A stretch of 64,000 nucleotides of DNA from Escherichia coli (GTDB lineage: Bacteria; Pseudomonadota; Gammaproteobacteria; Enterobacterales; Enterobacteriaceae). The stretch lies in assembly GCF_030013205.1 (NCBI RefSeq), contig NZ_CP122648.1; one strand, 5' to 3'. This document shows, piece after piece, positions 51,301 through 57,300 of the stretch. Position numbers: made by a program. The stretch's first letter is position 1. Each line of letters begins with the position of its first letter.

Positions 51301-54300
51301 CTAATTATTTAAAATTAAAGCCATCCGGATGGTTTTCCAGGCTGCCGGTCAACGCCGCGAACAGCACCGTTTTACCATCAATCGAAAGCGCATCGTTCAC
51401 ATTCAACCAAGTGAGTTTCTCTTGCGACGTTTTCTCATCAATAGTCGAGAACAGCCCCGTCATCTGATTAGATTTCTCGGACCACATCACAGCGATACGT
51501 TGCGAGCCACAGTCATACGGTTTGCACGCGCTCATCACCTGATACGTCTCATCTCCCAACGTTACGGTTTGTGCGGGAGTATAAGTACCGCCTTTCATCA
51601 CCCATGCAGGTAGCTTATGCCCTTGCACCATCTGATTAAACGCAGCTTTGGTGGTTTCGCCCTTTGCAAGGCTGCTAATGGTTAAATCATCCTGCGCCAT
51701 TGCACTGGTGGCGATGACCAGAGCGGCGACTGTCGTTATTGCCTTAAACATCATTCCTCCCGAGCTTATCCTGCCCATGTTATTAACCTCCTAAAGCCTG
51801 GCGATAACACGATAATTTGCAAATCAGATATTTCCAATATCAGCATTTGTTATCAATTTATTCTGCGCTAAGGCAACTGCCTGATAAGGTGTTAGAGTTA
51901 TAAAACCCTTCGCATAAAGGAGTTGTACACCGTGCCTGGTTTGAAGATTACGCTTTTACAGCAACCACTGGTGTGGATGGATGGTCCTGCCAACCTGCGT
52001 CATTTTGATCGTCAACTGGAAGGTATTACCGGGCGCGATGTGATCGTTCTACCGGAGATGTTTACCAGCGGCTTTGCCATGGAAGCGGCAGCTTCGTCGC
52101 TAGCACAAGATGACGTAGTGAGCTGGATGACAGCCAAAGCGCAGCAGTGCAATGCGCTGATTGCAGGCAGTGTTGCATTACAAACGGAGTCTGGTTCGGT
52201 TAACCGCTTTTTGCTGGTTGAGCCGGGCGGCACGGTACATTTTTATGATAAGCGTCATCTGTTCCGCATGGCAGATGAGCATCTACATTATAAAGCGGGC
52301 AATGCGCGAGTGATTGTGGAATGGCGCGGCTGGCGTATTTTGCCGCTGGTGTGCTACGACTTACGTTTTCCTGTGTGGTCGCGCAATCTCAACGATTATG
52401 ACCTCGCCCTGTACGTCGCCAACTGGCCTGCTCCGCGCTCTCTGCACTGGCAGGCATTGCTGACGGCCCGCGCGATTGAGAATCAGGCGTATGTAGCGGG
52501 ATGCAATCGCGTCGGCAGCGATGGCAACGGCTGCCATTATCGCGGTGACAGCCGGGTGATTAATCCACAAGGCGAGATTATCGCTACTGCCGACGCGCAT
52601 CAGGCAACACGCATTGATGCGGAGCTGTCGATGATGGCATTGCGGGAATATAGAGAAAAGTTTCCGGCATGGCGGGATGCGGATGAGTTTAGGTTGTGGT
52701 GAGTGGGTGTTGTGTTTAGGGCCGGGGAGAGTCAGGGTAAGACTACGAAAGCCCGCTCCCTGCAAGGACTGACGCCAGGTAGTTTCTGTCCATGGCTGCT
52801 TTTCGCATCTTACGTCTTAACCCTGCCTTGAATACATTATCATTCGTTAAAATATTAATAGCGATGTGCCGTATCCCTGAAAATAATTCTGCTGCATTTC
52901 CTCTTCTTATTTTTCAGTCGTCTTTATTCATTACCACGTCCAGACGCCAGTGCAGCTTATTCTCCACGTGCCAGTGGTTTCGGATTGCTGTGGCGAACTT
53001 CTCTGCGGTTAAATCAGCAGAACTGATATAATATCTGACCGTCATTTCTGGCTCTTTCTTTTGTTCTGCTATTATTGACCGAAAGGAGACTGCCACACAT
53101 AATTTCTTCAGTCCTTTCCATTCAAACGTGAAATCAATAAGTTCATCAGGGACATCGCAAACAATATGAAGACGGATTTCTTCTCTGCCGTGACTCTTTT
53201 CACTAATGGCGTAACTGTCATGCTCTGGATTATTTAATTCTTTCAGTGGAAATTTTTCCTCAAAGGCTTTATTAAGCCGCCCCTGATTTCCTTTTACAGC
53301 GAATAAATAATCACCGCCCTGTTTTTGTATCTTCTCTGCAATATCTTTCTGGCAACCCATCGCATCAGTTGTGATGATTTTTCCTTTAATATCCAGCACG
53401 TTAAGAAGTTCAGGGATAGCTGTGATTTCATTGAATTTCTCATCCGTCCTGATCTGTCCGATGACCAGACTGTGCATTGTTGAGAACGCACTAATGACAT
53501 GAATCGCTCCCCTGCGGCGACTCTTGTCATAAGAATGCCGGAGCGTTTTTCCATCAATTGCAATGACGTCTTTATCATCTGAAGAATGGCAGTCACGCAT
53601 CCAGTTAATAAAGCACTCGTGAAATTTTGCAGGACTGATACAGGATACAACTCTGGCAATGGTATCGTGAACAGGAATACCATTTTCAAAATCACCGTAT
53701 TGTTTTAAAAAATCGAGATGTGTTTCCCCAAAATCCTCTATATCTTCCCAACCTTCTGCACCAGAAATAACGGCACAAATAGTCAACAGTAGAATATCCG
53801 ATAATTTATGTTCCACTTTCCAGGCTTGTCTGTAATCGGGAATAATAGAAATATGCTCCATCAATTTTTTAAGTTCCATTTTGTTCTCCTTAATTATGTA
53901 AGGAGTATTTGATCATGTATACGCAATAAAAAACAGCTTCAGGTAATGAGGAATATCTCAATTTTTAAGCATAAAATGCGAATTGTTTAGTACAAAAAAG
54001 CAGCGTTACGTGATCTTTCCCTGCACTTCACCCTAACTTTAATTTAACTTCAAGAAGTATTAAGGCCTCAATAGCGAACTTAATACTTCTTAAAGAATAT
54101 CACTCCTGACCAAAATCTTTCCACACTAATGCATGAGACTTTGATTTATCACCCAAAAATTTACTTACATCTTTCCAAAGTAAAGAATTGCTATCGGTCG
54201 CAGTGACTATTGCCTCTATAAGCCCTGTAGCTACAACTGTGGCCAATTCATCATCAATCGAGACCATACCATCTTCGACATGTTTAAATATTTTTTCTCT

Positions 54301-57300
54301 TTCAATATCACCCATTTCATAAAAATTTTTTACAATCGTTTTTCCAATCTGAGAGAACAACATAACCACCGGTGGAGTTTCTGGATGCCAGTATTCATTA
54401 GCTAATGAGACTGTCTCAGACAAAACAGTGGAAAACGATGCCATTTTTTCTATATAATTAGCAATATATTGGTTCATTACTTGCCTCCCAAAGCATTCTG
54501 TAAATCCTGAAGAACGTTTTCTGCTGCTGCTCGATCCCCTGGAGATGCTGTTGGATTCTTATCCAACCAATCCTGTAAAGCCCTTGTATAATCCTGTGCT
54601 TTCAATACATGTCCTCTACCACCAACTTTTTCACCTGTGGCCAATTCATAACGAACAGCATCTGCTGTGCTTCCACTTCCTACTTTTGCATTTGGCCGAT
54701 AAAGATCGTCTATAATATTTTTCAAATTTGAATCTGTAACGTCAGGTTTTCCCATCTTCTGTCGCAATTCATCTTTATACCGTTCATGCTGCATACGATC
54801 TCTTGCGCTATTCTCATCTTCTGGTCCCCATCCTCCCGGGCTTCCCGTACTGCCACCACCCAGGCAGTTCTTCTCTTCCTCCGTCAAATCCTTCCCGACA
54901 TTTGGATTCTCTTTTGATGAATCATCATTTCCAAACACGCTGGAAAAAGCACCATAGGGATCTCGCCAGAATTCCATTTGACTTTGTGCATTTAATAATT
55001 CGGCTTCACCCTGCATCTCCATACTTTTCTCAATCGCGTCCCCAACAGCCTCGCGATTGTTGTATATTATTATACCACCACCAATAACCACCGTACCGAC
55101 TGCCGCACCGACTAACATCCCCGGAGGGCCTCCTACCGAACCGATCTCTGTACCTACTTCAGAACCAGTTCCCATGGCAGTTAATGCTCCTGCGCCCAAC
55201 GCCGCACTTAATCCCAGCGGATCCAGCCGTTGCACCGGGTTCAGTGGATACGCATACAGGTTCCATCCCCCCTTCAGCCCAATCGGATCCTGGGTGATAT
55301 ACCTCCCCTGTAGCGGGTCATAGTACCGGTGACGGTTGTAGTACAGCCCCGACTCCTCATCATACTGCTGCCCCGGCAGACGGAGTGACTGTTGAAGGTG
55401 CTGCGTGCTTTCCTCTCCCAGCAGGTTTCCCCACTCGTCATACTCCCCGCGCCACGCCGTTTCCCCTTCCGGGCTGATAAGCGCCTGCGGCAGCCCACGG
55501 TGGTCACAGTGGTAAAGATGAAGTTTCCTCTCCGGGATGTATTCCGCCTCCAGTTGCGCCGCCATCTGTTCCGCCGTCAACCCACACTGTGCAAGCCACT
55601 GCTGGCTTTCTTCACTCACGCTGCCCTGCCGCAGTTCCCGCTCCAGCCTCCCCAGCATCACCGCCAGCTCCGCCGGTAGCGTCACACCCGTGTCCTCCTG
55701 CAACACCTCCGCCAGGCTACGGTGCCGCGCCTTCGCCTGTTCGCCATTCTCTGTTTCGATTCTCAGGAGCGGCGTGAAGCTCCCCGGCTGGTATACCGTC
55801 TGGATACGCGTGGTGTCGGTCTGTACCGTCGTCAGCCTGTCGCCGTCCCACCCGTACCAGGTCACCTCCGGTTTACGCGACAGCGACATCCACCCCGTCA
55901 GGTCACGCTCCCGCCGCCACACCCGTTTTCCCGTCCGGCGGCCCAGCGGGTCATAGAGGTAGCGGCTCTCCACCTGTGGCTCGCCGTGCTGTATCCGCGT
56001 GTAGAACACCAGGCGGTGCTGGCTGTCGTAATGGTAGTGGTGCGTCCGCTCGTCGTGCATCCGTATCACCCCTTCCGGGATACGGTCCGTCTTCTCCGCC
56101 AGCCTGCCGTATTCATCGTAGCGGTAGACATAGTGCGCATCTTCCGTGATGCGGTTATCCGGCCATGCCGTGAGGGTGCTGTCCGGGTGCAGTTCCGGGG
56201 CCGGCAGCCGGTTTCCTGCCGGGTCCGTCGCATACGGGATATCAATGTCCAGGTTCGCTGCCGTGGTGTGGACGCCCGTCAGCCTTCCCGTGTCGCTGTA
56301 ACGGTACTCCCGGCTCTCCTGCGGGCCGCTGATGCGAATTAGCTGTCCGTTGTCGTTCCAGTCGTAGTCACGGTCAAGCTGCGGAAGGTTCAGGTGCCTG
56401 CTCCGGAGCTGGCCGCTGGTATTCCAGGCGGTGGCAAGCTCATATGCCTCCCCGCCGAAGCTGCGGGCCGTCTCACGGTGCAGCCGGTCCCGCGTGTACT
56501 CGACCAGTGGCGTACCACCCAGCTTCATTCCCGCAAGATAACCGCTGCCATACGTCAGCCACTCCACCGGCGGCAGACCGTCCGGCTCCTGACGGGTCGC
56601 CAGCCCCTGTTCGCTGTACGCGTGCTTCGTCTCATGCTCCCACAGCATCTCCCCCGTCTCCGGGTTAACGTGGTTAATTACTACTTACAATGACCTGCCG
56701 TTAATCCCAGACAGGCAGATGCAACTCACTTCACGGAACCGCATCATTTTTCAGTATTTTTTACATACAAACCGAGCTAGAATTTACGGTTGTCGTAAAA
56801 ACTATTTTTAAAATCATTAAATCTCTTATTCAGCAATAAGTTAATAATATATATCTGGATAACCATACCCAACTGTTCAAAGTCCGTATTGCCTCCATAA
56901 AATGGCCAAAGCTGAATCATGAATAAATATTGTATTTATCCTTTCTGAATTATCATTTTGATAATTTTTGAGATATTCCTTAAAAATACCCACTTAATCA
57001 ATCACAAAACAAATATATAAACAATCAATCATCAAATTAGCTTATGTTTAATGAAATTATTTTATAATTCAATAAGTTACATAAATGCTCTATATTTAAA
57101 TTATTGCCATAATACACCTGACGCGAATTGCACAGGTTCACACAATCTATTTAACGCTTGCAGAACACCCCTCTTTACGATCGATAAAAAGTCCTTTTCT
57201 TATTTATTTTGAAGCGTAGAATGCGGGGTGATGAAGGAGTGGTGATTTTATTTTCACCGCCATTATGGCGGCATTGCCGATATTTTTTTGCGGTACAAAT

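Follow-up and report, generated by a model that had tools for sequence, protein, structure and literature searches.

The C-terminal toxin region of CdiA (CdiA-CT) from uropathogenic Escherichia coli (UPEC) strain 536 (structures 5J43 and 5J5V) joins an FtsH-dependent entry domain to an Ntox28 tRNase that needs CysK, and this toxin carries a C-terminal GYGI tail that binds CysK. CdiA-CTs as a class consist of an entry domain and, typically, a nuclease (PMC9424206). For Tde1, a type VI secretion (T6SS) DNase of Agrobacterium, an N-terminal glycine zipper is needed for membrane permeabilisation and entry (PMC10240207), and the 3' ends of rhs genes, along with the immunity genes, can be expressed alone as toxin-antitoxin (TA)-like pairs (PMC7618764). 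Here, we analysed a shortened rhs gene and the 125-aa open reading frame (ORF) that follows it in a 64,000-nt stretch of the E. coli contig NZ_CP122648.1 (assembly GCF_030013205.1), referred to below as the window. The element is likely what is left, at the 3' end, of the main rhs effector gene linked to the T6SS in E. coli, together with its immunity gene, working by the mechanism proposed below.

At the same site, strain 7/2 carries hcp, vgrG, a gene for a 1,499-aa 'RHS element core protein' (WP_021516938.1), and the same 125-aa gene (immunity protein WP_001077735.1), in the order yafV, ISAs1, rhsI, rhs, further genes, and tssB. Over the tip and the immunity gene, the DNA of strain 7/2 was 100% identical to the window (1,136 nt). 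Blastn revealed that the window is without 5,262 bp of the strain 7/2 locus (L002 14768-20029), namely the first 2,310 nt of rhs (~776 codons) and all of vgrG and hcp. Neither the N-terminal PAAR/VgrG-loading region nor a complete cocoon, both of which secretion requires, is present in the window copy, since the first ~776 residues of the strain 7/2 protein, with its PAAR/VgrG-binding end and over half of the cocoon, are gone. A three-way alignment placed the junction within a short microhomology, AAC..GGAG, at which rhs codon ~777 is fused to the site of the hcp Shine-Dalgarno sequence. As a result, the hcp leader immediately precedes the remnant, and GGAG-N9-ATG at 56648 is a candidate start from which it may possibly be expressed. 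Because the locus is collinear with that of strain 7/2 except for this one internal deletion, the fragment is the main rhs that belongs to the T6SS cluster, with its head cut off, and not a displaced orphan. The first-pass annotation had called the pair an orphan; a tip and an immunity gene without a full Rhs are indeed what the window holds, but the displacement implied by that name gave way to the 5.26-kb deletion of the main rhs.

The exact junction was found in 17 of the 5,426 complete E. coli genomes examined, and all 17 came from swine. The window region 53900-57300 was 100% identical to chromosomes of swine enterotoxigenic E. coli (ETEC) and O139:H1 isolates. In E. coli CUPF12 (L003 9453-12289), an independent truncation was found at the same locus: hcp is kept, vgrG and the rhs 5' end are lost, and the rhs remnant, which has a near-identical tip, abuts hcp. 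Close by are a further rhs, IS903B, and ISAs1 copies. Deletions have thus recurred at this site, making it a hotspot.

The Rhs ORF occupies 54477-56648 on the minus strand and encodes 723 aa, with its first ATG at 56648. Its frame, thought at first to open at about 56676, opens at 56684, right behind a TAA (56687-56685), and homology to full-length rhs begins at 56666. The NCBIfam model RHS_core (NF041261) aligned residues 1-480 of the fragment to model positions 773-1261 of 1261 (E 1e-300), and the score of 1000 bits remained under the cutoff of 2000 due to gene truncation. With the alignment confined to positions 773-1261, the last ~40% of the core is all that remains, in agreement with the earlier reading that the N terminus and most of the core are missing. 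TIGR03696 (Rhs_assc_core) aligned to residues 403-480 with 87 bits against a cutoff of 32.5, PF05593 and TIGR01643 matched the YD-repeat core, and PF03527 also matched the fragment. The core-ending DPxGL motif noticed at the first pass is DPLGL at residues 476-480 (nt 55209-55223; DPIGL...DPLGL is present). The G+C content drops from 0.63 in the core to 0.50, 0.53, 0.42, and 0.35 over the modules of the tail and the small ORF; a break of this kind between core and tip is classical for Rhs, and because of it we take the Rhs feature to be real and not a chance ORF. The NCBI annotation pipeline (PGAP) labels the fragment 'incomplete; missing N-terminus' and calls it a pseudogene. Shortened Rhs genes that keep a tip and an immunity gene are of an ordinary kind, and PGAP already lists a partial Rhs and a hypothetical protein here. 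Long antisense ORFs of 139 and 206 aa on the plus strand (55537-56342), which face the Rhs core with its 63% G+C, are not genes but artefacts typical of GC-rich DNA, where stops are few.

After DPLGL, 243 unrelated residues were counted. The first-pass annotation had described about 230 such residues, and both protein strings that it quoted were found verbatim; the tail is unrelated to the core as stated, but it is not the single block that was assumed. It consists of three separately exchangeable modules: a Gly-rich hydrophobic segment, a linker, and a 110-aa toxin domain. Of these, the Gly-rich segment and the linker, which other toxins also have, would serve delivery, and the toxin is the last 110 residues only. 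The hydrophobic module contains one transmembrane (TM)-like helix at aa 510-529 (tip residues 30-49; nt 55062-55121), with a Kyte-Doolittle 19-residue maximum of 2.16, and six consecutive GxxxG motifs lie in tail residues 15-38 (nt ~55095-55166), a pattern that was kept in the homologue P0021 when its sequence was read by eye. As in Tde1 (PMC10240207), a GxxxG run stands ahead of a putative cytoplasm-acting toxin domain on a T6SS effector; Tde1, however, is a cargo effector with an adaptor, whereas the zipper of the window lies inside the cargo of an Rhs cocoon, and no sequence kinship between the two is expected. An entry role is assigned by analogy (PMC10240207, PMC9424206). We propose that the hydrophobic module is a membrane-insertion or cytoplasm-entry module.

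The linker (aa 576-612) matched the stretch that connects the entry domain with the toxin domain in CdiA-CT UPEC536 (5J43, 5J5V, and 8ZYC; E ~1e-5), and it recurs in many CdiA-CT and Rhs-CT proteins having different flanking modules. The window tip and CdiA-CT UPEC536 are alike in being bipartite, with an entry part, a conserved and homologous linker, and a small all-helical toxin, and the Yersinia CdiA proteins P0014 and P0033 pair the 536-type entry domain with a toxin domain of the window type. They differ in the carrier, which is a T5SS (type V secretion system) CdiA with VENN in strain 536 and a T6SS Rhs with DPxGL in the window; moreover, the entry parts upstream of the linker are not detectably related, and the toxin is not PF15605.

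Exchange of the modules was seen at the level of whole genomes. The complete tip and immunity module was present in 267 genomes at 99% identity or above, and among the matches listed it was 100% identical and mostly on full-length Rhs. Other genomes carried the immunity gene, the toxin, and the linker (query positions 1-803/830) at 96-98% identity on a different N-terminal module, and the DNA recombination breakpoints fell at the linker (query positions 803-830). Conversely, in about 545 E. coli genomes the hydrophobic module and linker, at ~93.5% identity, were fused to another toxin, and the hydrophobic module was also coupled to a different toxin in P0006 and P0021. In those E. coli genomes, the downstream gene encodes a DUF3969 protein instead, so that immunity tracks the C-terminal domain. 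At two other E. coli rhs loci (L009 5393-6305 and L010 11961-12873), a 150-aa orphan ORF (WP_000960005/960010) joins the same Gly-rich module and linker to another short toxin end, and a DUF3969 protein comes after it. The N- and C-terminal modules are thus separately exchangeable at a conserved junction, as in a bipartite tip of the CdiA-CT type. Rhs tips sharing the CdiA-CT linker and having exchangeable hydrophobic modules are absent from the databases and from the literature searched. Near pptA, a full-length rhs was also seen to carry the window-type toxin and immunity module.

A search with the tip returned 114 homologue clusters (90% identity), in which the ~110-aa domain was always C-terminal. 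Its carriers were VENN/CdiA (PF04829), Rhs, PAAR (PF05488), and PT-TG (PF14449) proteins, and its named hosts included Escherichia, Salmonella, Yersinia, Pectobacterium, Dickeya, Erwinia, Pantoea, Gilliamella, Neisseria, Cupriavidus, Paracaedibacter, and Parachlamydia. In domain numbering (alignment A1), G44, G46, S47, R53, E55, H67, K70, and N98 were invariant; the family motif is GG.xHxxK, with K70 its invariant Lys, and the window protein ends in ...ALGGK. The family is mildly basic (median isoelectric point, pI, 9.2), and an AlphaFold2 (AF2) model of the domain consisted of five helices with a pLDDT of 92. Scanned against Pfam, NCBIfam, and PADLOC, the entire fragment, its 243-aa tip, and its 116-aa end gave nothing but Rhs core matches and noise, and all 56 family members yielded only sub-threshold noise against Pfam, for example DUF4404 and Rv0078B. 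Among Protein Data Bank (PDB) sequences, the tip matched in its linker only and the toxin profile had no match, and the AF2 model had no significant fold match. The C-terminal domain thus bears no Pfam, NCBIfam, or PDB assignment, as expected from its description at the first pass as unclassifiable. HEPN (Rx4-6H), Walker A, Doc/Fic, and ADP-ribosyltransferase motifs were considered and rejected by eye for unfit spacing or fold, and RhsF/RhsFI of enterohaemorrhagic E. coli (EHEC) was rejected as a characterised relative for its different toxin and immunity type.

That the toxin acts as a nuclease, probably an RNase, is a tentative call, though nearly an even one. It was made by analogy because the toxin slot of CdiA-CTs is typically held by a nuclease (PMC9424206), because the invariant Arg, Glu, His, and Lys would suit metal-independent RNA cleavage, and because the toxin is basic and the immunity protein acidic.

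The 125-aa ORF on the minus strand shares one base with the rhs stop (TAATG). Its product has a pI of 4.8 and a Kyte-Doolittle 19-residue maximum of 1.34, with no TM segment and no signal peptide. In five contexts of toxin homologues (L004-L008), the gene that comes next touches or overlaps the stop of the toxin and encodes 121-129 aa, 25-47% identical to the window ORF; these are an Erwinia CdiA orphan, a Pantoea VENN/PT-VENN (CdiA-type) fragment, a metagenome CdiA orphan array, a Tn3-associated copy, and another metagenome contig. Because a homologous ORF comes straight after the toxin domain in each of five unrelated contexts, the ORF is predicted to be the cognate immunity gene, the role presumed for it from the overlapping stop alone. 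All immunity homologues matched PF24722 (DUF7674). The window protein scored 20.7 bits (E 4.6e-4), below the gathering cutoff of 27, whereas a Pantoea homologue (35% identity, same synteny) scored above it with 37.7 bits and five others scored 16-22 bits; the window protein is best described as a divergent branch of DUF7674. The Pfam check suggested at the first pass therefore left the tail without a toxin family and the small ORF DUF7674-like: no known toxin family with a different partner emerged, and the small ORF was not recognised as an unrelated gene.

A search with the immunity profile gathered 597 clusters at 50% identity, nearly all standalone proteins of ~120-125 aa; proteins of this family are acidic (pI 4.4-5.5) and lack membrane segments. 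The profile had no match among PDB sequences, and literature searches with DUF7674 and the RefSeq protein accessions returned no paper. The toxin family and its pairing with DUF7674 are absent from the databases and from the literature searched. When toxin and immunity protein were modelled by AF2 as one chain joined by (GGGGS)6 from a block alignment, the pTM was 0.82 and only the linker was disordered, which is supportive of a confidently docked pair as judged from pTM and disorder.

Two arrangements of the family were observed in passing. P0283 (370 aa) has two tandem DUF7674-like domains, each followed by a ~45-aa piece matching toxin helices 4-5 (hmmsearch 5e-10 and 8.5e-5), with the His missing. 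In the metagenome CdiA orphan array (L006 3001-4657), the toxin domain of P0065 is broken after ...VRYELATGE and the downstream DUF7674-like gene is intact, which is another case of immunity outliving its toxin.

In the intact allele, the 1,499-aa Rhs would ride on VgrG into a neighbouring cell, with the YD-repeat cocoon enclosing the C-terminal tip, which would be cut off at DPLGL. The Gly-rich hydrophobic module would then insert in the target inner membrane and bring the last 110 residues to the cytoplasm, where the all-helical toxin domain, with its invariant Arg, Glu, His, and Lys and its GSGST loop, would halt growth, most likely by cleavage of RNA or another nucleic acid. The acidic, cytosolic 125-aa protein would block the toxin by direct binding and so shield the producer. 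In the window strain, the toxin would no longer be loadable or fireable, and the tip and immunity cassette remaining behind the old hcp leader would provide immunity against kin firing the same toxin, or would act as a TA-like pair. By analogy, the remnant most likely persists as such an immunity or TA-like cassette: in EHEC RhsFint-RhsFI and RhsGint-RhsGI and in Salmonella Rhs, the tip and immunity gene are likewise uncoupled from T6SS delivery (as cited in PMC7618764). The uncoupling is due to an internal promoter in the EHEC rhs tips and to a physical deletion in the window, and EHEC RhsFint (PD-(D/E)xK-like) and RhsFI (alpha+beta) are unrelated to the window toxin and immunity protein.

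Several observations weigh against this account. The six GxxxG motifs, the glycine-zipper-like stretch of the first-pass annotation, are present as described, but the same count was reached in 6.7% of shuffles of the same 50 residues, so that the periodicity goes only weakly beyond composition. Outside the linker, the hydrophobic module could not be related by homology to any of the entry domains tested, the nuclease call derives solely from analogy and residue chemistry, and the covalent linker in the fused AF2 model may favour docking. A promoter and terminator scan gave nothing above chance.

Two rival explanations concern the activity of the tip. The strong TM-like helix with its consecutive GxxxG motifs could itself be the killing part of a membrane-depolarising or pore-forming toxin, with the C-terminal helical domain as an accessory; glycine-zipper ionophores occur in CDI (contact-dependent growth inhibition), and Rhs Tse5 is a pore former (PMC11630599). 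We judge this highly improbable, as the hydrophobic module swaps among C-terminal domains while the immunity gene changes with the C-terminal domain, and the same toxin domain is found on CdiA, PAAR, and PT-TG carriers without the hydrophobic module. In addition, the immunity protein is soluble and acidic, whereas the immunity proteins of ionophores are membrane proteins. Alternatively, the toxin domain could be a very distant member of the all-helical Ntox28 tRNases, to which CdiA-CT UPEC536 belongs, and cut tRNA anticodon loops. No PF15605 match was obtained for the window domain or any of 56 relatives, the window toxin has no GYGI tail, and hhalign gave a probability of 1.9% and a score of 17.5, which was exceeded by 1 of 30 column shuffles. 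The Ntox28 catalytic motif [DN]HxxE (PMC3482391) is replaced by HxxK in the toxin family. The domain was not filed under Ntox28 because of this motif and the hhalign result, and we consider such a kinship improbable.

The other two rivals concern the status of the locus. It may be a silent, decaying pseudogene in which neither the tip nor the immunity gene is expressed or selected, in line with the PGAP call, the decay of the adjoining T6SS (the in-frame stop of tagH and the deleted hcp and vgrG), and the promoter scan. On the other hand, the tip and immunity gene match full-length alleles at 100% over 1,136 nt with no frameshift or stop, although the deletion may be too recent for decay to show; the deletion also put the fragment directly behind the hcp leader with its GGAG-N9-ATG, and rhs tips and immunity genes are known to be transcribed independently (PMC7618764). 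Silence of the locus is thus unlikely in our view, though by no means negligible. A classic orphan rhs-CT/rhsI pair, displaced from the main rhs by a new tip, would have the same anatomy of core piece, tip, immunity gene, and downstream ISAs1 H-repeat, as do orphan cdiA-CT/cdiI modules, and CdiA orphans with this toxin and immunity pair were seen as well (L004-L006). Unlike such modules, the window fragment has no parent rhs upstream for recombination: no full-length rhs with PAAR was found there in the window strain, and the tssB control region abuts instead. The comparison with strain 7/2 revealed a simple internal deletion, and the displacement is contradicted by the junction alignment; we give it almost no credence. 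A main rhs beheaded by deletion, with its tip and immunity gene retained, remains our reading of the locus.

Table 1. Features of the rhs remnant and its surroundings in the window
Feature	Position	Strand	Basis or remark
ISAs1-family 'H-repeat' transposase pseudogene	52743-53879	-	NF033564, E 1e-113; PGAP 'internal stop'
Predicted rhsI-type immunity gene	54100-54477	-	125-aa ORF, DUF7674-like family; homologues of 25-58% identity next to the toxin domain in L004-L008
Putative toxin domain, Rhs fragment aa 614-723	54480-54809	-	Five-helix; 114 homologues, alignment A1
Acidic Gly-rich inter-domain linker, aa 576-612	54813-54923	-	Homologous to its counterpart in CdiA-CT UPEC536
Gly-rich hydrophobic module, aa 481-575	54924-55208	-	GxxxG run, TM-like helix, then ~45-aa acidic region
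Rhs YD-repeat core remnant, fragment aa 1-480	55209-56648	-	NF041261, TIGR03696, PF05593, PF03527
Deletion junction	56658-56666		Blastn against strain 7/2, three-way alignment
Divergent hcp/tssB control region	56667-57346		AT-rich, 33% G+C; now directly upstream of the cut-down rhs
tssB	57347-57847	+	First gene of the adjoining T6SS structural cluster (tssB, tssC, tssE, tssF, tssG, tagH...)

The annotation of the neighbouring genes was taken from K_EC180, a strain identical to the window. The ISAs1 H-repeat is the usual 3' neighbour of Rhs elements, and the same order was seen at other rhs loci. In the T6SS cluster, tagH (plus strand, starting at ~62977) has an in-frame TAG at 63262-63264 (codon 96) and is called a pseudogene by PGAP in the identical strain; this stop and the loss of hcp and vgrG suggest that the whole T6SS locus is undergoing inactivation in the lineage. 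Farther away, an island beside tRNA-Thr (~19785-28990), with an integrase remnant, holds an AbiEi/AbiEii toxin-antitoxin pair and a complete type I restriction-modification system (hsdR/M/S). In the annotation of the identical strain, ecpA, encoding the major subunit of the common pilus (~2780-3397), has an internal stop, a prfH-rtcB pair lies at ~37700-39460, and what is left of a lateral-flagella locus (lafU and a 5'-truncated flhA) is found next to hicAB at ~42100-45310.

The broadest proposal from these data is a joint one: that the 110-aa domain, with its GSGST loop and invariant R, E, H, and K, founds an un-named polymorphic-toxin family whose fold and chemistry are new among solved toxins, which ranges from Enterobacterales to Neisseria, Cupriavidus, and chlamydia-like bacteria and is paired with DUF7674, and that E. 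coli and Salmonella Rhs tips carry CDI-style inner-membrane entry modules via the CdiA-CT linker. Taken together, this is possible but, on balance, doubtful. If it were true, modules would be exchanged directly between T5SS and T6SS, and Rhs cargo would be set free in the periplasm, from where it would have to pass the inner membrane unaided. The toxin family, with at least 114 clusters, is one without a Pfam toxin model, a structure, or a known activity, and DUF7674 would gain a function, immunity. The three-part tip, with its linker common to Rhs and CdiA, offers a testable handle on the route of Rhs cargo to the cytoplasm, and it also bears on the trading of parts between T5SS and T6SS arsenals. 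For the swine ETEC/O139:H1 lineage, the deletion would be a tidy natural case of disarming while staying immune.

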